This document shows, one piece after another, positions 1 through 55,548 of a DNA stretch of 64,000 bases. The notes under the pieces are model-generated. The model did not search any database. It was not told the DNA's origin and saw only the letters and a list, made by a program, of their open reading frames with translations. This stretch comes from Escherichia coli (GTDB taxonomy: Bacteria; Pseudomonadota; Gammaproteobacteria; Enterobacterales; Enterobacteriaceae): the NCBI RefSeq assembly GCF_044324875.1, contig NZ_CP172185.1, one strand, 5' to 3'. The position numbers and the translations under genes are program-made. Each line of letters begins with the position of its first letter. Positions within the stretch are counted from its first letter, which is position 1.

Positions 1-8
1 AATCAAAA

Positions 9-35
9 AGCCCGCAGCAATGTGCGGGCGTTAGT
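9..35 (-). terminator. intrinsic terminator downstream of uspF
   Basis: Inverted repeat gcccgcagcaatgtgcgggc followed by a T-run on the minus strand, immediately 3' of the uspF stop. Confidence 0.5.
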
Positions 36-36
36 G

Positions 37-552
<516 letters not shown>

Positions 553-611
553 TTAGATCAAAGGAGGGAGAATAAGCAGAAAAAGCCCGCCATAACAGCG
601 GGCAGGAGGAT

Positions 612-1730
612 TTAGAACTGATAAACCAGACCTAAAGCGACAATATCATCGGTAGAGATGCCGTTGGCAGCGTAGAAGCTGTCATCTTCATCCAACAGGT
701 TGATTTTATAGTCAACGTAGGTGGACATATTTTTGTTGAAATAGTAAGTCGCGCCAACATCGGCGTATTTAACCAGATCTTTATCACCGTCGGTACCGAC
801 CAAATCCTTGCCTTTAGACATCAGGAAAGAGACTGCCGGACGCAGCCCAAAATCGAACTGATACTGCGCAGTAACTTCAAAGTTCTGGGTTTTGTTGGCA
901 ATCGTATTTGTTGAATCACCGTAAGGTGTCATGTTACGCGTTTCAGAATACATGGTCGCCAGGTAGATATTGTTAGCATCGTATTTTGCCCCGGCAGTCC
1001 AGGCGTCAGCCTTATCGCCTTTTGCGGTAGAGAATTCAGCCTGCTGGTTAGTGCGATCGGAGCTGGTATAGGCGGCACCAAAACTCATGCCCATACCTAA
1101 GTCGTAGGTAGTGGAGATGCCAAAACCGTCGCCATTGGCGTTCTTAATGTTTCGATCACCACCGTTTGCGGTACCTTCTTGCTCATGGGTGACCTGGTTT
1201 TCATTCGCGCCCTGGTACTGTAACGCAAAATTCAGACCATCAACCAGACCGAAGAAATCAGTATTACGATAGGTTGCTACGCCATTGGCTCGACCGGTCA
1301 TATAGTTATCGGCTTTGGTATAAGAGTCACCACCGAATTCCGGTAGCATATCGGTCCAGCCTTCGATGTCGTACATTACGCCATAATTACGACCATAGTC
1401 GAATGAACCCAATTCACCAAATTTCAGACCGGCAAAAGCAAGACGAGTCCAGGAATCACCTTTATCACCTTCAGAGCCATTAGCCTGCACGTTATATTCC
1501 CACTGGCCATACCCAACCAGTTGATCCGTGATTTGCGTTTCACCCTTAAAACCAAAACGCACATAAGTTTGATCACCATCACTATTGGCATTATCAGAAA
1601 AATAATGCAGGCCATCAACTTTGCCATACAGATCTAATTTGTTGCCGTCTTTATTATAAACTTCGGCTGCATGTGCAGCACCTGCGGCGAGCAGGGCAGG
1701 AATTAAAAGTGCCAGTACTTTGCTTTTCAT
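612..1730 (-). CDS. ompN: outer membrane porin N
   Basis: 372-aa ORF with signal peptide [21 protein letters not shown] and the OmpC/OmpF-type porin start [17 protein letters not shown]-terminal F typical of beta-barrel porins; intrinsic terminator hairpin at about 583..606. Confidence 0.9.
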
Positions 1731-1958
1731 TGAATAAATCCTTTAGTTATTTTATTTGCCTTTTCATCCCCATTTTGGGGAGTGAAAGCATCCTAAAGGA
1801 GAAGTTCAGTTAGCCGATAAATATCATTTGTTACGCCTTAAGTAAAACCTTAATCAAATAATTCTTCTGAAATGATAATAAGTCTGGTGAATGTATTGAA
1901 GATAATACATACAAAATAAAAATTATACTTTTAATTTGCTATACGTTATTCTGCGCGG

Positions 1959-2067
1959 GTTATATGCCTTTATTGTCACAGATTTTATTTTCTGTTGGGC
2001 CATTGCGTTGCTACTGATTTTCCAACATATAAAAAGACAAGCCCGAACAGTCGTCCGGGCTTTTTTT
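1959..2067 (+). ncRNA. micC: MicC small regulatory RNA (ompC-targeting, Hfq-dependent)
   Basis: Sequence gttatatgcctttattgtcacagattttattttctgttgggccattgc...caagcccgaacagtcgtccgggcttttttt matches the MicC sequence as I remember it, ending in a hairpin plus T-run; lies in the ompN-ydbK intergenic region as in K-12. Confidence 0.85.
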
Positions 2068-2096
2068 TAGAATTGGATAATTCTTATCCAGAGCAT

Positions 2097-5000
2097 TTAA
2101 TCGGTGTTGCTTTTTTCCGCTTTTCCGGCCATTTGTGCCAGGAAGTCATAGCGTTTTTGCAAATCAGCTGCAGCATCTTTCCATAACTGCTCTGCCACTT
2201 CTGGCTGCTGCGAATTCAGACGACGGAAACGTTGCTCATGAAGTAACGTTTCTTCCAGTGCTTCTGACGGCGGGCGTGAATCCAGTGCCAGCGGCAGTTT
2301 GCCTTCATCGGCTCGACGTGGATCGAAGCGATATAGCGGCCAGAAGCCGGTGGCAGTGAGTTGGCGCATCTGGTCGTGACTGAGTGCCAGATCGTAACCA
2401 TGCTCTTCACACGGGCTATAAGCGATGATCAGCGATGGTCCCGGATACGCTTCTGCTTCCTGAATCGCTTTCACTGTCTGGTTCAGCTGTGCACCAAGAG
2501 ATATCTGCGCCACATAAACATGACCGTACATCATCATACTGACGCCAAGATCTTTACGCGCTTTACGTTTGCCGTGCTCGCCAAACTTAGTCACCGCGCC
2601 AAGCGGCGTGGCTTTTGACGCCTGACCACCGGTATTGGAATAGCATTGCGTATCCAGCACCAGAATGTTGACGTTTTCCGTCAAACTCAATACATGATCC
2701 AGACCGCCAAAGCCGATATCGTAAGCCCAGCCGTCGCCACCAATCAGCCAGATTGATTTTTCCACCAGTGCATCTGCGTCACGTAGCAGTTCATGTGCTT
2801 CGGCAACATCGTTGAGTTGCTGGCGTAAAGCTGCGACCTGTTCTCGACGAACCTCTGGCGTGGCGTCTGATTTCAACGCAGTCAGTAATTCCGCCGGGAT
2901 TTTATCGGCAAATTGATCCAGCAGACGCAGCACGCGGACACGGTGTTGATCGACCGTCAGGCGGAAACCAAGGCCAAATTCGGCGTTATCTTCAAATAGC
3001 GAGTTCGCCCATGCCGGTCCACGACCGTTGGCATCGGTGGTATACGGTGTAGAGGGCAGGTTACCGCCATAAATTGAAGAACAGCCGGTGGCGTTAGCGA
3101 TCAACATCCGGTCACCATAGAGCTGAGTCAGCAATTTAATATACGGCGTCTCGCCACAACCGGAGCAAGCACCTGAATATTCAAACAGTGGTGTAATCAG
3201 CTGCGATGTACGAATATCAATACGTTCCAGTTTGCTACGGTCGATTTCTGGGAGGTTGAGGAAGAAATCGTAATTGATTTTCTCTTCTTCGACATGTTCC
3301 AGGCGAGACATCATATTGATGGCTTTAATCTCTGGATTCTGACGGTCTTTCGCCGGGCAAACTTCGACGCACAGGTTACAACCGGTGCAATCTTCCGGAG
3401 CCACCTGCAAGACATATTTCTGCCCGCGCATATCACGCGATTTCACATCCAGCGAATGCAGGCTGGCAGGGGCGTTTTCCATCGCTTCAGGCGGTACCAC
3501 TTTTGCGCGAATAGCTGAGTGTGGGCAAGCAGCGACGCAGTGGTTACATTGGGTACAGAGTTCCTCTTTCCAGATGGGGATCTCTTCGGCGATATTGCGT
3601 TTTTCCCAGCGCGTGGTGCCCATCGGCCAGGTGCCGTCTGGCGGCAGCGCCGAAACGGGGAGGGCATCACCAAGCCCGGCGAGCATCGCCGCGGTAACGG
3701 TTTTCACGAAATCAGGAGCGGCATCGGAAACCACAGGCGGTCGATTGGCGCTGTGCGGATTAACCGGCTGCAACGGAACTTCTTCTACGGATTCACGCGC
3801 CAGCGCCAGAGCCTGCCAGTTGCGCTCCACCAGATCCTGACCTTTGCTACTGTAACTTTTGGCAATCGCACCCTGCAATTCTGCGAGGGCGCTATCGCCA
3901 GGCAGAATTTGCGTCAGATGGAAAAAAGCCATCTGCATGACGGTATTAATACGGGCCGCCAGGCCACATTCGCGGGCGATTTTCGCCGCGTTAATCACAT
4001 AGAAGCGCGCTTTTTTCTGATTTAACACGGCCTGAACTTCTTGCGGCAAGCGCGACCACACTTCATCTGCGCTGTACGGCGTGTTGAGCAGGAAAATGCC
4101 GCCAGGTTTTAAACGCTCAGCCATCTGATATTTATCGATAAACTGCAACTGGTGGCAGCCAACAAAATCAGCCTGGGAAATGAGATAAGCGGAACGAATC
4201 GGCTGTTCGCTCACGCGAAGGTGAGAAACCGTCAGGCCGCCCGCCTTTTTGGAGTCGTAAACAAAATAGCCCTGTGCGTACCACGGCGTGGAATTACCGA
4301 TAATCTTGATATTGTTTTTGGTCGCGGAAACGCTGCCATCACTACCAAGGCCATAAAACAAGGCTTCCAGTTTCGCCGAGTTTGGCAGGGTGTTTTCCGG
4401 CAACGGCAGTGACAGATTGGTTACATCATCGTAAATACCAACCGTAAAGCGCGCTTTCGGTTTAGCCGCGTTGAGCTCGGCAAATACCGCCAGTACACAG
4501 TCCGGGCCAAATTCTTTGGATGAAAGACCATAGCGCCCACCAATGACACGGGGCAGGGTTTCGCGCTCGCCATTATTAAAGGCTTCTGCCAGTGCGGTCA
4601 TCACATCCAGATAGAGCGGTTCTGCCTGGGCACCGGGTTCTTTGGTTCTGTCCAGTACCGCCACGCTGCGTACGGATCCCGGCAGAGCTTGCAACAAGTG
4701 TTTGGCGGAGAAGGGACGGTACAGGCGAACTTTCAGCACGCCGACTTTTTCGCCACGGGTTAGCAATTCATCAACCACTTCTTCACAGGTGCCAATGGCA
4801 GAGCCCATCAGGATAATCACCCGTTCCGCTTGCGGATGCCCGTAATACTCAAACGGCTGATACTGACGACCTGTCGCGGCAGCGAAATCATTCATCGCCT
4901 GTTCAACATGGTCGTAAACTGCGTTGTACCACGGGTTGGTGGCTTCACGTGACTGGAAGTAGGTGTCCGGGTTAGCCGAGGTACCGCGAATCACCGGATG

Positions 5001-5621
5001 CTCCGGATTCAGCGCGCGGGCGCGATGAGCATCAATTTCGGCCTGCGGCATCAGTTCAAGAATCGTGTCATCGGCCAGCGGGACAATTTTATTGATCTCG
5101 TGGGACGTGCGGAAACCATCAAAGAAATGAATAAATGGCACGCGACTCTTCAGCGTCGCGATGTGCGAAATAAGAGCAAAGTCTTGCGCTTCCTGGACGT
5201 TTGCTGCACACAACATCGCGCAACCCGTCTGGCGCACCGCCATAACGTCGGAATGATCGCCAAAAATAGAGAGTGCATGTGTGGCAACGGTACGTGCCGC
5301 TACATGCAGGACAAATGGCGTCAGTTCGCCTGCCAGTTTGTACAGCGTCGGGATCATCAGCAGCAAACCCTGCGATGACGTAAACGATGTTGAAAGGGCA
5401 CCCGTCTGCAAAGCGCCATGCACGGTAGCGATAGCACCCGCTTCCGACTGCATTTCAACCACGCGTGGTGTGTCTCCCCAAACGTTCTTCAAGCCGTTTC
5501 CGGCCCAGGCATCAGCCTGTTCTGCCATCGTGGAACTGGGGGTAATAGGGTAGATGGCGATAACTTCACTGGTGCGAAACGCCACCGAAGCAACCGCGCC
5601 ATTACCGTCAATAGTAATCAT
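2097..5621 (-). CDS. ydbK: pyruvate:flavodoxin/ferredoxin oxidoreductase (PFOR, NifJ-like)
   Basis: 1174-aa ORF; N-terminal MITIDGNGAVASVAFR; 4Fe-4S ferredoxin motifs CTQCNHCVAACP and CTGCNLCVEVCP; thiamine-diphosphate-domain motif GGDGW. Confidence 0.9.
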   Translation of the reverse strand: MITIDGNGAVASVAFRTSEVIAIYPITPSSTMAEQADAWAGNGLKNVWGDTPRVVEMQSEAGAIATVHGALQTGALSTSFTSSQGLLLMIPTLYKLAGELTPFVLHVAARTVATHALSIFGDHSDVMAVRQTGCAMLCAANVQEAQDFALISHIATLKSRVPFIHFFDGFRTSHEINKIVPLADDTILELMPQAEIDAHRARALNPEHPVIRGTSANPDTYFQSREATNPWYNAVYDHVEQAMNDFAAATGRQYQPFEYYGHPQAERVIILMGSAIGTCEEVVDELLTRGEKVGVLKVRLYRPFSAKHLLQALPGSVRSVAVLDRTKEPGAQAEPLYLDVMTALAEAFNNGERETLPRVIGGRYGLSSKEFGPDCVLAVFAELNAAKPKARFTVGIYDDVTNLSLPLPENTLPNSAKLEALFYGLGSDGSVSATKNNIKIIGNSTPWYAQGYFVYDSKKAGGLTVSHLRVSEQPIRSAYLISQADFVGCHQLQFIDKYQMAERLKPGGIFLLNTPYSADEVWSRLPQEVQAVLNQKKARFYVINAAKIARECGLAARINTVMQMAFFHLTQILPGDSALAELQGAIAKSYSSKGQDLVERNWQALALARESVEEVPLQPVNPHSANRPPVVSDAAPDFVKTVTAAMLAGLGDALPVSALPPDGTWPMGTTRWEKRNIAEEIPIWKEELCTQCNHCVAACPHSAIRAKVVPPEAMENAPASLHSLDVKSRDMRGQKYVLQVAPEDCTGCNLCVEVCPAKDRQNPEIKAINMMSRLEHVEEEKINYDFFLNLPEIDRSKLERIDIRTSQLITPLFEYSGACSGCGETPYIKLLTQLYGDRMLIANATGCSSIYGGNLPSTPYTTDANGRGPAWANSLFEDNAEFGLGFRLTVDQHRVRVLRLLDQFADKIPAELLTALKSDATPEVRREQVAALRQQLNDVAEAHELLRDADALVEKSIWLIGGDGWAYDIGFGGLDHVLSLTENVNILVLDTQCYSNTGGQASKATPLGAVTKFGEHGKRKARKDLGVSMMMYGHVYVAQISLGAQLNQTVKAIQEAEAYPGPSLIIAYSPCEEHGYDLALSHDQMRQLTATGFWPLYRFDPRRADEGKLPLALDSRPPSEALEETLLHEQRFRRLNSQQPEVAEQLWKDAAADLQKRYDFLAQMAGKAEKSNTD

Positions 5622-5894
5622 ATGACACCCTTACATTGCGCAAATGAGGGGCGCACGAAATTGCTGCGCGCCCAGTAGTTATCTTTCAATTTTAGCAAAT
5701 GGCTTTCTTCTGCATTTTCGCTTTTGTGTCCCCCACATCAGCGTAATGAATGTTTTGATCAAACAGAGGGCAAAAAAATAGCCATAAAAAAGTAAAAATG
5801 CGGGGCAACGCGCAGGACAGCTCTCGACGCCGCCCTCTGTGCTGCCTATTATTTATGGCGGTGTCGTTTGGCTTGAAGATCAGAGGAAGAAAAG

Positions 5895-6161
5895 ATGCGA
5901 GCAGCGTTTTGGGTAGGGTGTGCCGCTTTATTATTGTCGGCGTGTAGTAGTGAACCTGTTCAGCAGGCGACTGCGGCGCACGTAGCGCCAGGTTTAAAAG
6001 CGTCGATGTCCAGTAGTGGAGAAGCAAATTGTGCAATGATCGGCGGTTCGCTTTCTGTTGCCCGTCAACTGGATGGTACGGCGATTGGGATGTGTGCATT
6101 ACCCAACGGCAAACGCTGTAGCGAACAGTCACTTGCCGCCGGGAGCTGTGGCAGCTATTAA
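5895..6161 (+). CDS. ydbJ: small lipoprotein (DUF333 family)
   Basis: 88-aa ORF with lipoprotein-type signal (LLLSAC); conserved position between ydbK and hslJ. Confidence 0.75.
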   Translation: MRAAFWVGCAALLLSACSSEPVQQATAAHVAPGLKASMSSSGEANCAMIGGSLSVARQLDGTAIGMCALPNGKRCSEQSLAAGSCGSY

Positions 6162-6580
6162 TTCATTAAATCCGCCAGCTTATAAGTTAATGTCTGTTTC
6201 GCGGTCGCCAGCGTTAACTGGTTCGCGGTCAGATCCACTTGTGCACCTTCTTTCAGCATTTCGCTAATGGTGTTATCGAGTTCATTAAGCTGCGGGTTAG
6301 CGCACATCATACGGGTCATTGCCAGCCCTTTGGCTGTCAGTTCACCATTAGACAGTTTGCCTTCACCGCTAAAGCGGTTACACATGCTGCCGGAAATCAT
6401 CATCTTTTCACCAAAGCTGATTTCTGGCGGATTTTTATCGCTGGTCACGGGCTTACCGTTTACGCTTTCCAGCACAAAGCGATGATGCTGTAGCTGTTCT
6501 GGGGTTACAGCAATTTTGTCATTACTTACACATCCCGCCATCAGCAGGCTTAGCGCAACGAGCGCGGCTACTTTCTTCAT
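6158..6580 (-). CDS. hslJ: heat-shock lipoprotein HslJ (META domain)
   Basis: ORF 6158..6592(-); likely start at MKKVAALVALSLLMAGC (lipobox); conserved position next to ldhA. Confidence 0.8.
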   Translation of the reverse strand: MKKVAALVALSLLMAGCVSNDKIAVTPEQLQHHRFVLESVNGKPVTSDKNPPEISFGEKMMISGSMCNRFSGEGKLSNGELTAKGLAMTRMMCANPQLNELDNTISEMLKEGAQVDLTANQLTLATAKQTLTYKLADLMN

Positions 6581-6690
6581 TGTGGTTCTCAATTACAGTT
6601 TCTGACTCAGGACTATTTTAAGAATAGAGGATGAAAGGTCTTTGGGGATTATCTGAATAAGCTCCCCTGGAATGCAGGGGAGCGGCAAGA

Positions 6691-7680
6691 TTAAACCAGT
6701 TCGTTCGGGCAGGTTTCGCCTTTTTCCAGATTGCTTAAGTTTTGCAGCGTAGTCTGAGAAATACTGGTCAGTGCTTCTGCTGTCAGGAATGCCTGGTGCC
6801 CGGTAAACAGCACGTTGTGGCAGGCAGACAGACGACGGAATACGTCATCCTGGATCACGTCGTTGGATTTGTCTTCAAAGAACAGATCGCGTTCGTTCTC
6901 ATACACGTCCATACCCAACGAACCAATTTTCTGATTTTTCAGCGCTTCAATTGCCGCCTGAGAATCAATCAATGCACCGCGACTGGTATTGACGATCATC
7001 ACGCCATTTTTCATCTGATCGAAGGCGGCTTCGTTCAACAGATGGTAGTTTTCCGGTGTCAGCGGGCAGTGCAGAGAGATAACGTCTGATTCAGAGAACA
7101 GGGTTGGCAGATCGACATACTCCACACCGAGTTCCAGTGCCGCCGCACTTGGATACGGATCGAACGCCAGCAGACGCATACCAAAACCTTTCAGAATGCG
7201 CAGCATCGCCACACCGATTTTACCGGTACCGATAACGCCTGCCGTTTTGCCATACATAGTAAAGCCGGTCAGACCTTCCAGAGAGAAGTTGGCGTCACGA
7301 GTACGCTGATACGCGCGATGAATACGGCGGTTCAGCGTCATCATCATACCGATGGCGTGTTCAGCAACGGCTTCTGGATCATAGGCTGGAACACGGACTA
7401 CTTTCAGCCCCAGTTCTTTTGCCGCGTCAAGGTCGACGTTATTGAAACCGGCACAGCGCAGGGCGATATATTTAACGCCGTGCTTTTTCAGCTCTTCCAG
7501 CACCGGGCGGCTGCCGTCATCGTTTACGAAAATACATACCGCTTCGCAGCCATTGGCGGTTTTAGCGGTTTTTTCCGTCAGCAGAAAGTCAAAAAATTCC
7601 AGCTCAAAGCCAAAGGACTCGTTCACCTGTTGCAGGTACTTCTTGTCGTACTGTTTTGTGCTATAAACGGCGAGTTTCAT
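6691..7680 (-). CDS. ldhA: fermentative D-lactate dehydrogenase, NAD-dependent
   Basis: 329-aa ORF MKLAVYSTKQYDKKYLQQVNE...; D-isomer 2-hydroxyacid dehydrogenase family with NAD-binding motif GVIGTGKIG. Confidence 0.9.
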   Translation of the reverse strand: MKLAVYSTKQYDKKYLQQVNESFGFELEFFDFLLTEKTAKTANGCEAVCIFVNDDGSRPVLEELKKHGVKYIALRCAGFNNVDLDAAKELGLKVVRVPAYDPEAVAEHAIGMMMTLNRRIHRAYQRTRDANFSLEGLTGFTMYGKTAGVIGTGKIGVAMLRILKGFGMRLLAFDPYPSAAALELGVEYVDLPTLFSESDVISLHCPLTPENYHLLNEAAFDQMKNGVMIVNTSRGALIDSQAAIEALKNQKIGSLGMDVYENERDLFFEDKSNDVIQDDVFRRLSACHNVLFTGHQAFLTAEALTSISQTTLQNLSNLEKGETCPNELV

Positions 7681-7887
7681 AAGACTTTCTCCAGTGATGT
7701 TGAATCACATTTAAGCTACTAAAAATATTTTACAAAATTTCAAATATAATTGAAAGCTATGGCGATATTGAAAAATTCATCAACAACTATGCTTAGTGTA
7801 GGCGCAACCTTCAACTGAACGGTTAAACATGCCACAATACCCGTATTGAATGCTTAATTTTTCGCTAAATCAGGATATTAACTACCC

Positions 7888-10527
7888 ATGCTGGGTAAAT
7901 ATAAAGCCGTTCTCGCGCTGTTATTACTGATTATTCTTGTGCCGTTGACGCTGCTGATGACGCTCGGCCTGTGGGTTCCCACGCTGGCGGGCATCTGGCT
8001 ACCGCTCGGGACACGTATTGCATTAGATGAAAGCCCACGCATTACGCGTAAAGGTTTAATCATCCCCGATCTCCGTTATCTGGTGGGAGATTGTCAGCTT
8101 GCGCATATCACCAACGCCAGCCTTTCACATCCCAGCCGCTGGTTATTGAACGTCGGCACGGTAGAACTTGATTCTGCTTGTCTGGCGAAATTGCCGCAGA
8201 CGGAGCAATCGCCTGCCGCTCCAAAAACCCTCGCGCAGTGGCAGGCCATGTTGCCTAACACCTGGATCAATATCGATAAACTGATTTTTTCTCCCTGGCA
8301 GGAGTGGCAGGGAAAACTCTCTCTCGCGTTAACCTCTGATATCCAGCAACTGCGTTATCAGGGCGAAAAAGTTAAATTTCAAGGCCAGCTGAAAGGGCAA
8401 CAACTTACAGTCAGCGAACTGGATGTCGTCGCGTTTGAAAATCAGCCGCCGGTTAAACTGGTGGGGGAATTTACTATGCCGCTCGTGCCGGATGGACTTC
8501 CTGTAAGTGGTCATGCTACTGCGACGTTAAACTTGCCGCAGGAGCCTTCACTGGTGGATGCCGAGCTGGACTGGCAGGAAAATAGCGGGCAATTGATTGT
8601 GCTGGCACGGGATAACGGCGATCCGTTGCTCGATTTGCCGTGGCAAATTACTCGCCAACAATTGACCGTAAGCGATGGTCGCTGGAGCTGGCCGTATGCA
8701 GGTTTTCCTTTGAGTGGCCGACTGGGTGTTAAAGTCGACAACTGGCAGGCAGGGCTTGAGAACGCTCTGGTCAGCGGACGACTGAGTGTGCTGACCCAGG
8801 GGCAAGCGGGTAAGGGCAACGCGGTGCTTAATTTTGGCCCTGGAAAATTAAGCATGGATAACAGCCAGCTGCCTTTGCAGCTGACCGGTGAAGCGAAACA
8901 GGCGGATCTCATTTTATATGCCCGCTTACCTGCGCAGCTAAGCGGAAGTCTGACTGACCCAACGTTGGCCTTTGAGCCAGGTGCGTTATTACGTTCGAAG
9001 GGAAGAGTCATCGATTCGCTGGACATCGATGAAATCCGCTGGCCTTTAGCGGGTGTAAAAGTCACCCAACGTGGTGTTGACGGACGTTTGCAGGCCATTT
9101 TGCAGGCGCATGAAAATGAACTGGGCGATTTCGTGCTGCATATGGATGGACTGGCGAATGATTTTCTCCCTGACGCTGGCCGCTGGCAGTGGCGCTACTG
9201 GGGAAAAGGCAGTTTTACACCGATGAATGCCACCTGGGATGTCGCAGGAAAGGGTGAGTGGCATGACAGCACGATTACGCTGACCGATCTCTCCACCGGT
9301 TTCGACCAGTTACAATACGGTACGATGACGGTAGAAAAGCCGCGACTAATTCTCGATAAGCCCGTCGTCTGGGTACGTGACGCACAGCATCCCTCCTTTA
9401 GCGGCGCGCTGTCACTGGACGCCGGGCAAACGCTGTTTACTGGCGGCAGTGTGTTACCGCCATCAACCTTAAAATTTAGCGTCGATGGACGCGATCCGAC
9501 GTATTTCCTCTTTAAAGGCGATTTACATGCTGGTGAGATTGGCCCGGTTCGGGTAAATGGTCGCTGGGACGGTATTCGTCTGCGCGGTAACGCCTGGTGG
9601 CCTAAACAATCACTGACTGTATTCCAGCCGCTGGTGCCACCCGACTGGAAGATGAACTTACGCGATGGTGAACTGTATGCTCAGGTTGCATTTTCTGCTG
9701 CGCCTGAACAAGGATTCCGCGCGGGAGGGCACGGCGTGTTGAAAGGCGGTAGTGCCTGGATGCCAGATAATCAGGTTAACGGTGTCGATTTTGTCCTGCC
9801 TTTCCGTTTTGCTGATGGAGCCTGGCATCTGGGGACTCGCGGCCCCGTTACGTTGCGAATTGCCGAAGTGATTAATCTGGTGACAGCGAAAAATATTACG
9901 GCTGATTTGCAAGGGCGCTATCCGTGGACTGAAGAAGAACCATTGCTGTTGACTGATGTTAGCGTCGATGTGTTAGGCGGTAACGTGCTGATGAAACAAT
10001 TACGTATGCCGCAACATGACCCGGCGCTGTTGCGGCTGAATAATCTCTCATCCAGCGAACTGGTTAGCGCCGTCAATCCGAAACAATTCGCCATGTCCGG
10101 GGCATTTAGTGGTGCATTGCCGTTATGGCTAAACAACGAAAAATGGATAGTGAAGGATGGTTGGCTGGCAAATAGCGGGCCAATGACCTTGCGACTGGAT
10201 AAAGACACCGCAGATGCGGTAGTGAAAGACAATATGACCGCGGGTTCAGCAATTAACTGGTTGCGCTATATGGAAATTAGCCGTTCATCGACAAAAATTA
10301 ACTTAGATAATCTCGGTTTATTAACCATGCAGGCCAACATTACAGGTACCAGTCGCGTTGATGGTAAAAGCGGTACGGTAAACCTTAATTACCATCATGA
10401 AGAGAATATTTTTACGCTGTGGCGCAGTTTACGCTTTGGCGATAATCTCCAGGCATGGTTGGAGCAGAACGCACGTCTGCCGGGAAATGACTGTCCGCAA
10501 GGAAAAGAGTGTGAGGAAAAACAATGA
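7888..10527 (+). CDS. ydbH: AsmA-like large inner-membrane-anchored protein
   Basis: 879-aa ORF with N-terminal transmembrane segment; first gene of a ydbH-ynbE-ydbL arrangement in which the stop overlaps the ynbE start. Confidence 0.85.
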   Translation: MLGKYKAVLALLLLIILVPLTLLMTLGLWVPTLAGIWLPLGTRIALDESPRITRKGLIIPDLRYLVGDCQLAHITNASLSHPSRWLLNVGTVELDSACLAKLPQTEQSPAAPKTLAQWQAMLPNTWINIDKLIFSPWQEWQGKLSLALTSDIQQLRYQGEKVKFQGQLKGQQLTVSELDVVAFENQPPVKLVGEFTMPLVPDGLPVSGHATATLNLPQEPSLVDAELDWQENSGQLIVLARDNGDPLLDLPWQITRQQLTVSDGRWSWPYAGFPLSGRLGVKVDNWQAGLENALVSGRLSVLTQGQAGKGNAVLNFGPGKLSMDNSQLPLQLTGEAKQADLILYARLPAQLSGSLTDPTLAFEPGALLRSKGRVIDSLDIDEIRWPLAGVKVTQRGVDGRLQAILQAHENELGDFVLHMDGLANDFLPDAGRWQWRYWGKGSFTPMNATWDVAGKGEWHDSTITLTDLSTGFDQLQYGTMTVEKPRLILDKPVVWVRDAQHPSFSGALSLDAGQTLFTGGSVLPPSTLKFSVDGRDPTYFLFKGDLHAGEIGPVRVNGRWDGIRLRGNAWWPKQSLTVFQPLVPPDWKMNLRDGELYAQVAFSAAPEQGFRAGGHGVLKGGSAWMPDNQVNGVDFVLPFRFADGAWHLGTRGPVTLRIAEVINLVTAKNITADLQGRYPWTEEEPLLLTDVSVDVLGGNVLMKQLRMPQHDPALLRLNNLSSSELVSAVNPKQFAMSGAFSGALPLWLNNEKWIVKDGWLANSGPMTLRLDKDTADAVVKDNMTAGSAINWLRYMEISRSSTKINLDNLGLLTMQANITGTSRVDGKSGTVNLNYHHEENIFTLWRSLRFGDNLQAWLEQNARLPGNDCPQGKECEEKQ

Positions 10528-10709
10528 AAATTTTACTGGCTGCGTTGACGTCATCTTTTATGCTGGTTGGCTGTACGCCTCGCATTGAAGTCGCTGCACC
10601 TAAGGAACCGATCACTATCAATATGAACGTTAAAATTGAGCATGAGATCATCATCAAGGCAGACAAAGATGTCGAAGAGCTGCTTGAGACTCGTAGCGAT
10701 CTTTTCTGA
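10524..10709 (+). CDS. ynbE: small lipoprotein YnbE
   Basis: 61-aa ORF MKILLAALTSSFMLVGC (lipobox); start overlaps the ydbH stop. Confidence 0.8.
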   Translation: MKILLAALTSSFMLVGCTPRIEVAAPKEPITINMNVKIEHEIIIKADKDVEELLETRSDLF

Positions 10710-10713
10710 GGCG

Positions 10714-11040
10714 ATGATGAAGAGAAATTTAATGCTGTGTTTTGTCATTAATGCCTTATTTAGCACCAGTGCGATGGCTCTGACGCTGAATGACGCTCGA
10801 ACTCAGGGGCGTGTTGGCGAAACGTATAATGGTTATCTGGTTGCATTAAAGGCGGATACCGAAACACAGATGTTAGTCAAAAGGATTAATGAATCGCGTA
10901 ATAAGAGCTATCAACAACTCGCCATGAAAAATAATCTGCCGGTTGCGGAAGTGGAAAAATTGGCGGGGCAAAAACTGGTAGCAAAAGCTAAGCCTGGAGA
11001 ATACATTCGCGGGATAAACGGGATGTGGTTGCAAAAATAA
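10714..11040 (+). CDS. ydbL: periplasmic protein YdbL (DUF1318)
   Basis: Reading frame of ORF 10636..11040; start placed at ATGATG (10714), 4 bp after the ynbE stop, giving 108 aa with signal peptide MMKRNLMLCFVINALFSTSAMA. Confidence 0.8.
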   Translation: MMKRNLMLCFVINALFSTSAMALTLNDARTQGRVGETYNGYLVALKADTETQMLVKRINESRNKSYQQLAMKNNLPVAEVEKLAGQKLVAKAKPGEYIRGINGMWLQK

Positions 11041-47390: not shown

Positions 47391-47930
47391 ATGACTGAAA
47401 CGATAAAAGTAAGCGAATCACTTGAATTACATGCTGTTGCAGAAAATCACGTCACACCTCTTTATCAGTTAATCTGTAAAAATAAAACCTGGTTACAGCA
47501 GTCGCTAAACTGGCCGCAGTTTGTTCAAATTGAAGAGGACACACGAAAAACGGTGCAGGGCAATGTAATGTTGCATCAACGCGGCTATGCCAAAATGTTC
47601 ATGATTTTCAAAGAAGATGAACTTATCGGCGTTATCTCGTTTAATCGTATTGAACCACTGAATAAAACCGCTGAAATCGGCTACTGGCTGGACGAATCTC
47701 ATCAGGGGGAGGGGATCATTTCTCAGGCGCTGCAGGCATTGATTCATCATTATGCTCAGTCTGGTGAACTTAGACGCTTCGTGATCAAATGTCGGGTGGA
47801 CAATGCGCAAAGCAACCAGGTCGCTTTGCGCAATGGTTTTATCCTTGAAGGTTGCCTGAAACAGGCTGAGTTTCTGAATGATGCCTATGATGATGTGAAC
47901 TTATACGCGCGTATTATCGATTCACAATAA
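47391..47930 (+). CDS. rimL: ribosomal-protein L7/L12 serine N-acetyltransferase
   Basis: Start [16 protein letters not shown] within ORF 47376..47930 (179 aa); GNAT acetyltransferase fold. Confidence 0.85.
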
Positions 47931-48902
47931 CCCTGCCAGCGGCGTTCGCGTAATGCGCTCTTCGCCGTTAATGACTTTTGGACCACGGACATGAACCGTG
48001 TCGCCATCAAAGGCTTCAACGACGGCGTGGTCGGTTAACTCCACATGGTTTTCAATTATCACCGCACCTGTAATACGGCTCTCACCTTGTATTACAACGT
48101 GCTCGTCGAGCAGAATCGGTCCGCCACGTACCACGGCATTTCCGCCAATCAAGACATGATGTTTTAACACACAATTACCTTCCACAATGGCATATTCCGC
48201 TACCTGCGAACTGTAATGAATTGTCGGAATGGCATCTTCTTCTATGCCAGCTTTCACCTGCGCGTGACCGTAGACTTTAGCACAATCGCATAGCCAGACG
48301 TTGTTCTCTTCATTACCTTCAACGCTGGCAAAATCAAAAACTTCGGCGCGATGTTCAATAAAAGCATACCGGACGACGGCATCGCCATAAATTTGTGCCT
48401 GGTGAACAATACGCGAGGCGCTAACCCTTGCGCGATCATAAATTTGTAGCAGGAGTTGATGGTCGGAGGTTAAGCCTTGCGCGGCGACGATCATAGAATG
48501 TTGATCAATTAAGGCGTGACCAAATATTCTACATTGACCGCAAACTAATGCGTCACGAATGGTGACGCTGTCACTTATATGTGCACCCTGACTGATTTCA
48601 CTATTATCGATCCAGACGTTATCCGTTGCGTAAACCTCTCCCCAAAGGACGCTGGTGCCGGTGATACGCGTATTACCGGAAATCACCGTTCCGCCGAACG
48701 CAATAGCATTCTGATCGTAAATCCAGCAATTTCCTTCCTGCGCTAACACCGTTTCGCGATCGATCCAGCCGCCAGCGGTTCCTGCTATCACATCGTTAAA
48801 ATCGCTCATGGCGATAATTTGCCGTAATAACACACTTTTTTTAGTGCCATCATCCTGATAACTAAAGGCTCGCTGTTCTTCACTTAGACGATATTTGCGC
48901 AT
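47922..48902 (-). CDS. ydcK: hexapeptide-repeat (left-handed beta-helix) protein YdcK
   Basis: 326-aa ORF with repeated hexapeptide-like pattern; conserved position between rimL and tehA. Confidence 0.8.
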
Positions 48903-49025
48903 AGCGTTTTCCCACAGGTGACTTACTATAACCGTAGCAAATTCTGCGGCTCTGGCTATGCTCGAGAAAATTCCATAAAATGCATTTCAAATATACTTTA
49001 TAAATTAAACAAAATGAGTAAGAAG

Positions 49026-50018
49026 ATGCAGAGCGATAAAGTGCTCAATTTGCCGGCAGGCTACTTTGGTATTGTGTTGGGGACGATAGGGATGGGATTT
49101 GCCTGGCGCTATGCCAGCCAGGTTTGGCAGGTCAGCCACTGGTTAGGGGATGGGCTAGTGATTCTGGCGATGATCATCTGGGGATTATTGACTAGCGCAT
49201 TTATTACCCGACTCATACGCTTTCCGCATAGCGTGCTGGCGGAAGTGCGTCATCCAGTGATGAGCAGTTTTGTGAGTTTGTTTCCGGCAACGACGATGCT
49301 GGTGGCGATTGGTTTTGTTCCGTGGTTTCGCCCACTGGCGGTGTGCCTGTTCAGTTTTGGCGTCGTGGTGCAACTGGCTTATGCCGCCTGGCAAACTGCG
49401 GGATTATGGCGCGGATCTCATCCTGAAGAAGCTACCACGCCTGGACTGTATCTGCCGACAGTTGCCAACAACTTTATCAGCGCAATGGCCTGTGGTGCAT
49501 TGGGCTACACCGACGCTGGTCTGGTGTTTTTAGGCGCAGGCGTTTTCTCATGGTTAAGCCTGGAACCGGTGATCTTGCAGCGTCTGCGCAGTTCGGGAGA
49601 ATTACCCACGGCGCTGCGGACATCACTCGGCATTCAGCTCGCTCCTGCGCTGGTGGCCTGTAGTGCCTGGCTGAGCGTCAACGGCGGCGAGGGTGACACG
49701 CTGGCGAAAATGCTTTTCGGTTATGGGCTGCTGCAACTGCTGTTTATGCTACGTCTGATGCCATGGTATCTCTCCCAGCCATTTAATGCTTCATTCTGGA
49801 GTTTCTCGTTCGGCGTATCTGCACTGGCAACCACCGGTTTGCATCTGGGGAGTGGCAGCGATAATGGATTTTTCCATACGCTGGCGGTGCCGCTGTTTAT
49901 CTTTACCAATTTTATAATTGCAATACTGCTCATCCGTACTTTCGCGCTTCTGATGCAGGGGAAATTGTTAATCAGAACCGAGCGCGCCGTTTTAATGAAA
50001 GCTGAGGACAAAGAATGA
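49026..50018 (+). CDS. tehA: tellurite resistance / C4-dicarboxylate-transporter-family membrane protein TehA
   Basis: Start [19 protein letters not shown] within ORF 48918..50018 (330 aa); polytopic membrane protein. Confidence 0.85.
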
Positions 50019-50618
50019 TCATTCGTGACGAAAACTATTTTACTGATAAGTATGAATTAACCCGCACACACTCTGAAGTACTGGAAGCGGTGAAAGTGGT
50101 TAAACCCGGTAAAACGCTGGATCTGGGCTGTGGCAATGGTCGTAATAGTCTTTACCTGGCAGCCAATGGTTATGAAGTTGACGCATGGGATAAAAATGCC
50201 ATGAGTATCGCCAACGTCGAGCGTATTAAATCCATTGAAAATCTGGATAATTTACACACCCGGGTCGTTGATCTGAATAACCTTACGTTTGATGGGCAAT
50301 ACGATTTTATTCTTTCGACTGTGGTGCTGATGTTCCTTGAGGCTAAAACCATCCCAGGGCTGATTGCCAATATGCAACGTTGCACTAAACCTGGCGGTTA
50401 CAACCTGATTGTGGCGGCGATGGATACCGCTGATTATCCATGTACCGTCGTGTACCGTCGGCTTCCCGTTTGCCTTCAAAGAGGGAGAATTACGTCGATA
50501 TTACGAAGGCTGGGAGATGGTGAAATACAATGAAGACGTCGGCGAGCTGCACCGCACCGACGCCAACGGTAATCGTATTAAACTGCGTTTCGCCACGATG
50601 CTGGCACGTAAAAAATAA
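50015..50618 (+). pseudogene. tehB: tellurite methyltransferase TehB, frameshifted by a 10-bp tandem duplication
   Basis: Frame 1 (50015..50533) encodes the N-terminal SAM-methyltransferase part; frame 2 (50409..50618) encodes the C-terminal [19 protein letters not shown]...ATMLARKK; tgtaccgtcg is directly repeated at 50441..50450 and 50451..50460; total length minus 10 bp equals 198 codons. Confidence 0.85.
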
Positions 50619-50920
50619 CCTGGTAAGAACAAGGCGCGTGAAAATTCCCCACGCTGAGATGGTCTACTGTTCTTCTTTTCGGTAAGCATAATTTTTATCG
50701 AATGGATGTGAAATTAATCACAGTAGTCGAAGTTTTTTAGCAGCTTAACTTACTGAAATTTAACTACTGATGATTGACTTAGCCCCTTTTTCGGCATTGA
50801 CTATGTCGTCTGAAAAGGGGCTGAAAAATTTATTTTCACCAACACTTTTTTTGCCACAACACGAAGCGGCGCTTTTTGCTATAACTTAGAAAGTAATATA
50901 ATCATCTCAGGAAACTATTC

Positions 50921-51589
50921 ATGCGTACCACATCAATTGCGAAAGTTGCAGCTTTATGCGGCTTGTTGGCTCTGTCTGGTTGTGCCTCTAAAATCACCCA
51001 GCCAGATAAATATTCTGGTTTTTTAAACAATTACTCTGATTTAAAAGAAACAACCTCAGCAACAGGTAAACCTGTTTTACGTTGGGTAGACCCGAGTTTT
51101 GATCAAAGCAAATATGACAGCATCGTCTGGAACCCAGTCACTTATTATCCGGTACCGAAACCATCTACCCAGGTAGGGCAGAAAGTTCTGGATAAAATTT
51201 TGAGTTATACCAACACCGAAATGAAAGAAGCGATTGCGCAGCGTAAACCACTGGTTACCACCGCTGGGCCGCGTAGTCTGATTTTCCGTGGGGCCATTAC
51301 CGGTGTTGATACCAGCAAAGAAGGGCTGCAATTCTATGAAGTGGTTCCTGTCGCATTAGTGGTCGCGGGGACGCAAATGGCGACGGGCCACCGTACCATG
51401 GATACTCGCCTGTATTTTGAAGGTGAGCTGATTGATGCAGCTACTAATAAACCGGTTATCAAAGTCGTTCGTCAGGGCGAAGGTAAAGACCTGAATAACG
51501 AAAGTACGCCAATGGCTTTCGAAAATATTAAACAAGTTATTGATGACATGGCGACCGATGCCACCATGTTTGACGTTAACAAAAAGTAA
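50921..51589 (+). CDS. ydcL: lipoprotein YdcL (DUF3313)
   Basis: 222-aa ORF with lipobox LALSGCAS. Confidence 0.85.
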   Translation: MRTTSIAKVAALCGLLALSGCASKITQPDKYSGFLNNYSDLKETTSATGKPVLRWVDPSFDQSKYDSIVWNPVTYYPVPKPSTQVGQKVLDKILSYTNTEMKEAIAQRKPLVTTAGPRSLIFRGAITGVDTSKEGLQFYEVVPVALVVAGTQMATGHRTMDTRLYFEGELIDAATNKPVIKVVRQGEGKDLNNESTPMAFENIKQVIDDMATDATMFDVNKK

Positions 51590-51622
51590 TTCCAGCCGCG
51601 CCATCGTAAGATGCGCTTTTTA

Positions 51623-52795
51623 TTATCGGTTTCTGTGAGCGATTAAATTCAACACCACGTAACAAACGCCTCCGGCAATTAATCCCCAGAACGCAGAACC
51701 AATCCCGACCAGCGTCAATCCACTTGCCGTTACCAGAAATGCCACCACCGCCGCGTCGCGCTCACGCTCATTATGCAGCGCCTGATACAAACTGCCGCCA
51801 ATGGTACTCAACAGCGCCAGACCTGCCAGCATCTGGATCCAACTTACGGGCAGGGCAGCCATCATCCCGGTAATGGCACTACCAAAAAGACCTGCGAGCA
51901 AATAAAAAATGCCTGCAACGGCAGCTGCCAGCCAACGTTGATCTTTATCCGGATGCGCTTCCGGGCTTTGACAAATAGCCGCGGTGAGTGCCGCAATACC
52001 GACGGAATAAACGCCGAAAGGGGAAAAAACAAGCGCCAGCAATCCAGTAAACACAATCAACGGCGAAACAGGAGCCGAATACCCGGCTGCTTTCATTGCT
52101 GCGATACCTGGAGCGTTTTGCGATGCCATCGTCACCAGAAAAAGGGGGAGTGCAACGCTCAGACTGTGAGCAAACGAAAAATCAGGGGTAATATAAGTGG
52201 GGAGAACGGGTTTAAAGACAACATCATTTGTGACAACGTCACCTTGCGCCATAACGATCACGATCCCAATAATCATCGCGGCAATTACCGCATAGCGCGG
52301 CGCAACGGCCCTGGTTGCCAGCCATACCAGCAACATACTGCCACACAACGTAAATTGACCATCCAGACTGGCAAACGCCTGTAAACCAAAGCGTAATAAA
52401 ATCCCGGCAAGCATTGCTGCCGCAAGCGAGTGCGGAATAATGCGCATCAGACGAGCAAAGAGTCCCGTTATGCCGCAGAGGACTATTAACGCGTTGGTGA
52501 CAATAAAAACGCCGATGGCTTCGTTAAGTGTTAGTCCCTGTAATCCGGTGACCAACAAAGCCGCGCCAGGCGTTGACCATGCGGTGAGAACAGGTACGCG
52601 ATACCATAATGTCAGAGTCAGCGTACTGACGCCCATTGCCAGCCCCAGCGCCGTCATCCAGCCAGAGATTTGTGCAGTGGTGGCTCCGGCGACAATCGCT
52701 GCTTGCCAGATTATTGCCGCTGAACTGGCGTAGCCAATTAATACCGCCAGAAACCCCGCCAGTAGCGTGGGTGGAGGAATAGAAAACAGACGCAT
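51623..52795 (-). CDS. ydcO: BenE-family (benzoate-transporter-like) membrane protein
   Basis: Frame of ORF 51623..53056(-); probable start MRLFSIPPPTLLAGFLAVLIGYASS at 52795 (about 390 aa); polytopic membrane protein. Confidence 0.8.
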   Translation of the reverse strand: MRLFSIPPPTLLAGFLAVLIGYASSAAIIWQAAIVAGATTAQISGWMTALGLAMGVSTLTLTLWYRVPVLTAWSTPGAALLVTGLQGLTLNEAIGVFIVTNALIVLCGITGLFARLMRIIPHSLAAAMLAGILLRFGLQAFASLDGQFTLCGSMLLVWLATRAVAPRYAVIAAMIIGIVIVMAQGDVVTNDVVFKPVLPTYITPDFSFAHSLSVALPLFLVTMASQNAPGIAAMKAAGYSAPVSPLIVFTGLLALVFSPFGVYSVGIAALTAAICQSPEAHPDKDQRWLAAAVAGIFYLLAGLFGSAITGMMAALPVSWIQMLAGLALLSTIGGSLYQALHNERERDAAVVAFLVTASGLTLVGIGSAFWGLIAGGVCYVVLNLIAHRNR

Positions 52796-52886
52796 AGTCA
52801 CCTCGTGCGTTATAGCGTACAGGTACCGTAGCATTTGTCCGTTATAACGCACAAGTGATAAACTTCCGTTTTGCCGGAGGAGTCGC

Positions 52887-53423
52887 ATGGAAAATCTCGC
52901 TCGCTTTTTATCCACCACACTTAAACAACTACGCCAGCAGCGCGGCTGGAGTCTTTCGCGACTGGCCGAAGCGACAGGCGTTTCTAAAGCGATGTTAGGG
53001 CAGATTGAGCGTAATGAGTCCAGCCCGACGGTCGCGACATTATGGAAAATTGCCACCGGGTTGAATGTGCCATTTTCGACATTTATTTCTCCGCCGCAGT
53101 CCGCTACGCCTTCAGTTTATGATCCGCAACAGCAGGCGATGGTGATCACTTCGCTGTTTCCTTATGATCCACAACTCTGCTTTGAACACTTCTCGATTCA
53201 GATGGCACCTGGTGCAATAAGTGAATCGACGCCCCATGAGAAGGGAGTAATCGAACATGTTGTCGTCATTGATGGGCAACTTGATCTGTGCGTTGATGGT
53301 GAATGGCAGAGCCTTAATTGTGGAGAAGGCGCTCGATTTGCTGCAGACGTTACGCATGTCTATCGTAATGGTGGGGAGCAAATCGTACATTTTCATTCCC
53401 TCATCCATTACCCACGCAGTTAA
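52887..53423 (+). CDS. ydcN: XRE-family HTH regulator with C-terminal cupin domain
   Basis: 178-aa ORF; HTH region RQQRGWSLSRLAEATGVSKAMLGQIERNESSPT; divergent from ydcO. Confidence 0.85.
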   Translation: MENLARFLSTTLKQLRQQRGWSLSRLAEATGVSKAMLGQIERNESSPTVATLWKIATGLNVPFSTFISPPQSATPSVYDPQQQAMVITSLFPYDPQLCFEHFSIQMAPGAISESTPHEKGVIEHVVVIDGQLDLCVDGEWQSLNCGEGARFAADVTHVYRNGGEQIVHFHSLIHYPRS

Positions 53424-53495
53424 GCGGGAAAACTATTTCGCAACGTCGCGCTTGTGGCTAAAATAGCCGCCATTTTTCAGCTACTGGATAAGAAT

Positions 53496-55457
53496 GTGAC
53501 CGTATCTTCTCATCGACTTGAACTGTTAAGCCCGGCACGCGATGCCGCCATTGCCCGCGAAGCTATTTTGCACGGTGCCGATGCTGTTTATATCGGCGGC
53601 CCTGGTTTTGGTGCCCGTCATAATGCCAGTAATAGCCTGAAAGATATTGCCGAACTGGTGCCGTTTGCCCATCGTTATGGTGCAAAAATTTTCGTCACGC
53701 TTAACACCATTTTGCATGATGATGAGCTGGAACCTGCGCAACGGCTGATTACCGACCTCTACCAGACCGGCGTCGATGCGCTGATTGTTCAGGATATGGG
53801 GATTCTGGAACTTGATATTCCGCCGATTGAACTGCACGCCAGTACGCAGTGCGATATTCGCACAGTAGAAAAAGCGAAGTTCCTCTCTGATGTTGGCTTT
53901 ACGCAGATTGTGCTGGCGCGAGAGCTGAATCTTGAGCAGATCCGCGCGATTCACCAGGCCACGGACGCGACCATTGAATTCTTTATTCATGGTGCATTGT
54001 GCGTGGCCTATTCTGGTCAGTGCTACATTTCTCATGCGCAAACAGGGCGTAGCGCCAACCGTGGCGATTGCTCGCAGGCATGCCGTTTGCCATACACATT
54101 GAAAGACGATCAGGGGCGGGTGGTTTCTTATGAAAAACATCTGCTGTCGATGAAAGATAACGATCAGACTGCCAACCTTGGCGCGCTGATTGATGCTGGC
54201 GTGCGCTCCTTCAAGATTGAAGGGCGTTACAAAGATATGAGCTACGTGAAGAATATCACCGCGCATTATCGCCAAATGCTGGATGCCATTATTGAAGAAC
54301 GTGGCGATCTGGCGCGTGCTTCATCAGGTCGTACTGAACATTTCTTTGTTCCATCGACGGAAAAGACTTTCCACCGTGGTAGCACAGATTATTTTGTGAA
54401 TGCCCGTAAAGGGGATATCGGCGCGTTCGATTCGCCGAAATTTATCGGCCTGCCGGTGGGTGAAGTATTGAAAGTGGCGAAAGATCATCTTGATGTTGCC
54501 GTCACCGAGCCACTGGCAAATGGCGATGGCCTGAACGTGATGATTAAACGTGAAGTAGTCGGTTTTCGTGCCAATACGGTAGAAAAAACCGGAGAAAATC
54601 AGTACCGCGTCTGGCCAAATGAGATGCCTGCGGATTTGCATAAAATTCGTCCGCATCATCCGCTTAATCGTAATCTGGACCATAACTGGCAGCAGGCGTT
54701 GACCAAAACATCCAGCGAACGTCGCGTAGCGGTAGACATTGAACTGGGCGGATGGCAGGAACAACTGATTCTGACCCTGACCAGTGAAGAGGGCGTCAGC
54801 GTCACGCATACGCTGGATGGACAATTCGACGAAGCTAATAACGCCGAAAAAGCGCTTAATAACCTGAAAGATGGTCTGGCTAAGCTGGGGCAAACCATCT
54901 ATTACGCCCGCGATGTGCAAATTAACCTGCCTGGTGCGCTGTTTGTACCGAACAGTCTGTTAAATCAGTTCCGCCGTGAGGCCGCCGAAATGCTGGATGC
55001 TGCGCGTCTTGCCAGTTATCAGCGCGGCAGTCGTAAACCGGTTGCTGATCCTGCGCCGGTTTATCCGCAAACGCATCTGAGTTTCCTCGCGAACGTTTAC
55101 AACCAGAAAGCGCGTGAATTTTATCATCGCTATGGTGTGCAGCTGATTGACGCGGCGTATGAGGCACATGAAGAGAAGGGCGAAGTCCCGGTGATGATCA
55201 CCAAGCATTGTCTGCGCTTTGCCTTTAATCTGTGCCCGAAACAGGCGAAAGGCAATATCAAAAGCTGGAAGGCGACGCCAATGCAACTGGTTAATGGCGA
55301 TGAAGTGTTAACGCTGAAATTTGATTGCCGTCCGTGTGAGATGCACGTCATCGGCAAAATTAAAAATCACATTCTGAAAATGCCGTTACCGGGAAGCGTA
55401 GTGGCATCCGTAAGTCCGGATGATCTGCTGAAAACATTGCCGAAGCGAAAAGGGTAA
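53496..55457 (+). CDS. ydcP: peptidase U32-family protein
   Basis: Frame of ORF 53454..55457; start uncertain (GTG at 53496 gives about 653 aa); collagenase-like U32 family features. Confidence 0.8.
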   Translation: MTVSSHRLELLSPARDAAIAREAILHGADAVYIGGPGFGARHNASNSLKDIAELVPFAHRYGAKIFVTLNTILHDDELEPAQRLITDLYQTGVDALIVQDMGILELDIPPIELHASTQCDIRTVEKAKFLSDVGFTQIVLARELNLEQIRAIHQATDATIEFFIHGALCVAYSGQCYISHAQTGRSANRGDCSQACRLPYTLKDDQGRVVSYEKHLLSMKDNDQTANLGALIDAGVRSFKIEGRYKDMSYVKNITAHYRQMLDAIIEERGDLARASSGRTEHFFVPSTEKTFHRGSTDYFVNARKGDIGAFDSPKFIGLPVGEVLKVAKDHLDVAVTEPLANGDGLNVMIKREVVGFRANTVEKTGENQYRVWPNEMPADLHKIRPHHPLNRNLDHNWQQALTKTSSERRVAVDIELGGWQEQLILTLTSEEGVSVTHTLDGQFDEANNAEKALNNLKDGLAKLGQTIYYARDVQINLPGALFVPNSLLNQFRREAAEMLDAARLASYQRGSRKPVADPAPVYPQTHLSFLANVYNQKAREFYHRYGVQLIDAAYEAHEEKGEVPVMITKHCLRFAFNLCPKQAKGNIKSWKATPMQLVNGDEVLTLKFDCRPCEMHVIGKIKNHILKMPLPGSVVASVSPDDLLKTLPKRKG

Positions 55458-55548
55458 AACGCCAGTTTTCTGGTTACTCACAACTTATCAAATCTGCATG
55501 ATATTGTTGGCCGGGTAAGGCGTTACGCCGCATCCGGCAATAAATGAC

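Follow-up and report, generated by a model that had tools for sequence, protein, structure and literature searches.

A tandem ten-nucleotide duplication interrupts tehB in an Escherichia coli strain related to enteroaggregative E. coli 042

The tehA and tehB genes considered here lie on the + strand of a 64-kb stretch of Escherichia coli DNA, which was analyzed as a whole and is referred to below as the window. TehB, specified by the second gene of the tehAB operon, is a SAM-dependent methyltransferase of tellurite and selenite. The gene order, ydcK-tehA-tehB-ydcL, is that of known E. coli tehAB, as is the junction between the two genes, where the stop codon of tehA overlaps the start codon of tehB in the tetranucleotide ATGA (50015-50018). 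The features that are relevant to the analysis are as follows, with the source of each assignment given where it adds to the description.

49026..50018, + strand: tehA, intact, 330 aa, 993/993 nucleotides identical to tehA of E. coli 042
50015..50618, + strand: tehB pseudogene, full extent of the original coding region, 604 nt long as opposed to 594 nt in the intact gene
50015..50533, + strand: remaining tehB open reading frame (ORF), 172 aa, consisting of TehB residues 1-145 and 27 out-of-frame residues
50441..50450, + strand: first copy of the decamer TGTACCGTCG (sequence, Tandem Repeats Finder)
50451..50460, + strand: second copy of the decamer TGTACCGTCG (sequence, Tandem Repeats Finder, alignment to tehB of 042)
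50461..50618, + strand: stranded C-terminal remnant of tehB, in frame +1 relative to the start codon (frame translations)

The product of tehA scores 572 bits against the NCBIfam model NF008032 (TehA) and covers profile positions 1-327 of 328, and an earlier note on this DNA was thus right to regard tehA as intact. The same note had reported a tandem decamer in the neighboring gene, with coordinates and a description that proved to be exact. In the region 50430-50470, the + strand reads ctgattatcc a TGTACCGTCG TGTACCGTCG gcttcccg, and Tandem Repeats Finder returns an array at 50441-50460 with a period of 10, 2.0 copies and a 100% match. The repeat does not extend by even one further matching base on either side. 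The decamer is found nowhere else in the 64-kb window, for which 0.04 chance matches are expected, and none of 100 shuffled sequences reached two copies. When the 64 kb were scanned exhaustively for units of 9-30 bp duplicated exactly in tandem, the decamer pair was the sole case. The analytic expectation for exact tandem duplications of 10 bp in a sequence of this length is 0.06, while in shuffled sequences duplications with units of 9-12 bp numbered 0.13 on average. It should be noted that the original and the added decamer cannot be told apart.

The duplicated 10-bp segment covers codons 143-146 of tehB. Compared with all other E. coli tehB genes that were examined, the two copies amount to an insertion of 10 nt. 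When aligned to tehB of 042, the gene presents 594 identities and one 10-nt gap, so that its length is not a multiple of three, and the comparison places an internal stop at codon 173. The frame break described in the earlier note was found as stated, with the upstream frame coding for TehB residues 1-145 and the downstream sequence continuing in the +1 frame. The premature stop is a TGA at 50531-50533. In the list of ORFs, a second one in the next frame overlaps that of 172 codons and ends at 50618. The remnant at 50461-50618 encodes TehB residues G146-K197, including H176, R177 and R184, together with the original stop codon.

That the interrupted gene is tehB, as the earlier note had assumed, follows from two family models. 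The 172-aa product scores 282.9 bits against the NCBIfam equivalog NF008405 (cut-off 218), aligning to model positions 1-147 of 198, and matches Pfam PF03848 with E=4.4e-78 over model positions 1-147 of 193. Positions 148-198 of the NF008405 model are left uncovered by this product, and a single full-length ORF is not present. The glycine-rich, class I SAM-binding motif DLGCGNG (residues 36-42) is kept and is identical to that of the solved TehB structures. When one decamer was deleted in silico, a frame of 594 nt was obtained, i.e. 198 codons specifying 197 amino acids and a stop, in agreement with the 198-codon frame and the TehB length of 197 aa that the earlier note had given. The repaired protein aligns over residues 1-197 with PDB entries 4dq0 (E=6e-133) and 2xva/2xvm (E=3e-131). 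Known TehB, as represented by these structures, thus agrees with the present gene over residues 1-145, and over all 197 residues once one decamer is removed. The difference is that known TehB is uninterrupted, while the gene studied here carries a 10-nt tandem duplication and codes for a 172-aa product.

In translation, the extra 10 nt would shift the ribosome by +1 after Val145, such that 27 unrelated residues are added before the stop at 50531-50533. The 172-aa product would retain the N-terminal part of the SAM-binding fold and lose the last 52 residues of the protein, and the enzyme would be expected to be inactive. The lost 52 residues hold a stretch led by GELH(R/K) that is nearly unchanged between the E. 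coli, Salmonella (2i6g) and Haemophilus influenzae (3m70) proteins. This C-terminal segment is the best-conserved part of TehB across large distances, out to the Haemophilus homologue 3m70. Since the most conserved part of the protein is gone, the truncated TehB is almost certainly inactive, as far as can be judged from sequence conservation. H176, R177 and R184 lie within the conserved C-terminal stretch of the repaired protein, and in the present gene they are encoded in the +1 frame, past the premature stop. Choudhury and colleagues are said to have proposed in 2011 that His176, Arg177 and Arg184 bind and orient the chalcogen oxyanion, and we take the same three residues of the repaired TehB to be those that position the substrate. 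The lesion leaves the upstream tehA unaffected. A polar effect is not expected, as the operon ends with tehB and ydcL lies approximately 300 nt further on. Terminator and promoter scans gave no signal above background.

To place the allele among other strains, 5,426 complete E. coli genomes were searched for tehB. The gene was present in 5,412 of them, in each case at a single site that spans 80% or more of the query. This comparison with the tehB of other strains, which had been suggested as a check, revealed no carrier of the duplication among the 5,412 genomes and no match with an identity of 99% or higher. The best matches reach 98.3%, corresponding to 594 of 604 alignment columns, and are therefore identical to the present gene save for the 10-nt gap. 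A 34-nt sequence spanning the junction had no matches in GTDB species-representative genomes and none in JGI metagenome contigs, and two Logan contigs are the only records of the 172-aa allele. The nearest genome in this part of the window is that of enteroaggregative E. coli 042 (NC_017626.1), with an identity of 99.9% over positions 40105-55526. Compared base by base over the 15.4 kb around tehB, the two sequences differ by three SNPs, the decamer insertion and one 1-nt indel. By this measure, the host strain is a close relative of 042 in the tehB part of the chromosome. With the 10 bp removed, tehB is identical to tehB of 042 at 594/594 positions, and secondary decay is absent.

As no carrier is found among the 5,412 genomes and as the gene, apart from the duplication, is identical to the intact 042 allele, the duplicated state is taken to be derived, and the ancestral frame is restorable. 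The identity to the intact 042 allele over the rest of the gene also marks the lesion as young, and the recent origin claimed in the earlier note is borne out in this respect. Taken together, tehB in this strain is very probably a genuine, recent and strain-private frameshift pseudogene of a well-characterized accessory gene, with a predicted loss of function.

A reading of this kind should also consider that the duplication might be an assembly artefact, the genome having one decamer and an intact tehB. Read support for the junction is not provable from a single window, and the allele is missing from the 5,412 complete genomes as well as from the GTDB and JGI contig collections, as would be expected of an error. 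However, the exact 172-aa product is found on two contigs of Logan assemblies of public read sets (two samples). One of these contigs, SRR31072984_16 (35.2 kb, assembled from the SRR31072984 reads), matches positions 45015-55533 of the window at 100% identity over 10,519 nt, duplication included. The neighborhood of tehB also speaks against an artefact, as the 15.4 kb compared with 042 contain only two indels. Furthermore, among approximately 50 genes of 042 and one of strain 7/2 that were compared with the window, tehB was the only one to present a frameshift or an internal stop. A 10-bp non-homopolymeric duplication is generally untypical as a sequencing error, and we know of no platform that characteristically duplicates 10 bp of non-repetitive sequence. 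As an independent assembly agrees and the neighboring genes are free of frameshifts, an artefact is highly improbable.

The Logan contigs should nonetheless not be over-interpreted. As calculated from the coordinates, the Logan contig ends approximately 28 nt inside an IS1 copy of the window (39336-40104), near window positions 40077-40105. Ending at the same IS1 boundary suggests that the Logan samples are the same clone as the source of the window, and they may be the same isolate. The contigs thus confirm the junction in reads but are not an independent population sample. The concern over an artefact, raised in the earlier note, is in this way largely answered by the SRR31072984 assembly and the indel-free neighboring genes, with the reservation that the same isolate may have been sequenced. 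The preferred reading, in which the duplication is carried by the genome itself, is followed from here on.

The window also contains several insertion sequences and regions of differing relatedness to 042. Three IS1 copies are present (15664-16431, 22042-22809 and 39336-40104), which are identical to one another at 768/768 positions and indicate a recent IS1 expansion; all three sites are unoccupied in 042. Inserted into an autotransporter gene of the ydbA type (11442..18299), which it splits, the copy at 15664-16431 is flanked by a 9-bp target duplication, ATGCTGGGG. The copy at 22042-22809 lies in ydbD and shows no target duplication, with approximately 105 bp of ydbD missing relative to 042 (an adjacent deletion). 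The copy at 39336-40104 sits in the intergenic region downstream of cybB and is likewise flanked by a target duplication of 9 bp. An insertion of approximately 1.4 kb (18300-19730), which separates the end of ydbA from pdxI, occupies a site that is empty in 042 and in 7/2, and its ORF at 18488..19696 on the + strand codes for a 402-aa IS256-family transposase (NF033543, 425 bits). With four IS copies in 64 kb, we also considered a Shigella-like decayed genome. This was rejected, as tehB alone is frameshifted among the approximately 50 genes compared.

Identity to 042 is 95.9% over positions 1-11038, 97-99% over 19731-29300 and 99.9-100% over 29336-55526, and for the first 22 kb the best match among complete RefSeq E. 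coli genomes does not exceed 98% (91% coverage). This mosaic relatedness to 042 points to a source strain that is a recombinant unrepresented among the 5,426 complete genomes. The ompN gene (612-1730, - strand) is intact and is 80.7% identical to ompN of 042, with 51 gap columns, while for uspF and nifJ on either side the identity is 98-99%; ompN is presumably a divergent porin allele that would derive from recombination or diversifying selection. Several differences concern lesions in 042 itself: its ydcF has an internal stop at codon 26 and its ynbB is split by an IS1, while both genes are intact in the window (34909-35709 and 24500-25400, respectively), and it carries IS1397 between rlhA and yncJ, where the corresponding window site (55524-55526) is empty. 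Small deletions relative to 042 are found at 51612 (1 bp, in the 33-bp spacer of the convergent ydcL and ydcO) and at approximately 63825 (13 bp, CAGTTATTATGAT, between patD and a catB-like acetyltransferase gene, in a spacer dense in SNPs).

With regard to the origin of the duplication, the 10-bp segment at codons 143-146 was most likely duplicated in tandem by misalignment during replication or repair. Spontaneous-mutation spectra such as that of lacI include small tandem-duplication frameshifts that arise from replication slippage. The tehB allele resembles such classical slippage duplications in that a perfect short unit is repeated head to tail, the frame is shifted and the change is revertible. 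It differs in its starting point, as classical hot spots offer pre-existing repeats or flanking microhomology, while wild-type tehB has one copy of the decamer and no flanking homology. No microhomology between the ends of the decamer and its flanks was found at the borders. A search for a hairpin or quasi-palindrome, in both wild-type strands and in the duplicated sequence, gave folding no better than that of shuffled sequences (z -0.3 to -0.6). As flanking microhomology is absent, classical slippage is not specifically supported. The slipped-strand origin proposed in the earlier note is reasonable, yet it was reached by inference, with neither microhomology nor hairpin potential at the site to support it. 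As both copies are perfect and adjacent, the lesion is revertible in principle, and precise loss of one decamer copy would be expected to restore wild-type tehB.

A different origin would be a transposon footprint, in which the decamer pair is the target-site duplication left after an IS element entered tehB and was exactly removed. A perfect duplication with zero flanking microhomology would fit such an event, and IS activity in the window has been recent, as seen from the three 100% identical IS1 copies and the IS256-family element. Nonetheless, the target duplications present at two of the IS1 copies in the window measure 9 bp and not 10 bp. Moreover, in none of the 5,412 complete genomes is tehB split by an element, all matches covering at least 80% of the gene, so that the intermediate state expected of this route is not found among them. 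Clean two-copy remnants are, in general, rare in E. coli. An excised IS usually takes one target copy with it or leaves a deletion, and to our knowledge classical end-joining is absent from E. coli, where excision breaks are rarely rejoined cleanly. We thus regard a footprint as very unlikely and retain misalignment during replication or repair as the preferred origin.

The perfect tandem arrangement also raises the idea of a functional switch, whether a phase-variable repeat that turns tehB on and off or programmed ribosomal frameshifting by which TehB is still made. Perfect tandem copies could be lost precisely, which would restore tehB, and the out-of-frame C-terminal coding sequence is undamaged. 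Contingency loci, however, are marked by repeats that vary, and here there are just 2.0 copies, with no copy-number variation at the site and no two-copy allele in the 5,412 genomes. For programmed frameshifting, neither a slippery motif nor a structure was apparent, the folding energies being no better than those of shuffled sequences. Rescue by ribosomes that shift to +1 when they reach the premature stop was examined separately and rejected, as the core of the fold would still contain the 27 wrong residues. A switch of either kind is accordingly so improbable as to merit little weight. It is similarly doubtful, to the point of being a very slim prospect, that the loss of tehB in an IS-expanding, 042-like lineage was selected or is reversibly switched and not neutral. 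If this were true, the decamer pair would be the revertible off-state of the methyltransferase. The reading that we favor is that of a plain frameshift pseudogene.

Other truncated tehB alleles, which are not uncommon among E. coli sequences, provide a reference for this one. A 90%-identity cluster of shortened TehB proteins that includes the 172-aa product has 268 members, many of which are merely cut at contig ends. One of them, P0003 (BDY94759.1/BDZ03353.1; 165 aa), reflects a separate tehB frameshift near codon 155. It is found on 13 contigs, one of which is a complete 5.2-Mb E. coli chromosome, and its 11-residue tail is another reading frame of the same tehB DNA. The P0003 frameshift thus falls in the same C-terminal third of tehB as the duplication studied here but is a lesion of another kind and at another position. 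The existence of this allele implies that tehB inactivation recurs in E. coli. Searching the literature for reports of E. coli tehB pseudogenes brought up nothing relevant.

When considering the consequences for the cell, it should be noted that tehAB on the chromosome is reported to confer tellurite resistance only if overexpressed from multicopy plasmids (PMC12348037), and that TehB has been described as the best-studied tellurium methyltransferase (PMC10382350). As resistance through tehAB is reported only on overexpression (PMC12348037), the phenotype of tehB loss is probably slight at single copy, and a comparison of tellurite MICs with a tehB+ relative at single copy may reveal little or no difference. 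The tehB pseudogene is, in this sense, biologically ordinary and of little wider consequence, with tehAB long known as a chromosomal determinant.

For this strain, the correct annotation of tehB is that of a pseudogene, and catalogues of resistance genes that list tehB under tellurite or metal resistance should not count it as functional here. The junction CCGTCGTGTACC, with the junction k-mer CCGTCGTGTACCGTCGG, occurs in none of the 5,412 complete E. coli genomes and is therefore a convenient marker of the clone. The allele is, in addition, a clean natural case of a de novo short tandem duplication that arose without flanking microhomology.
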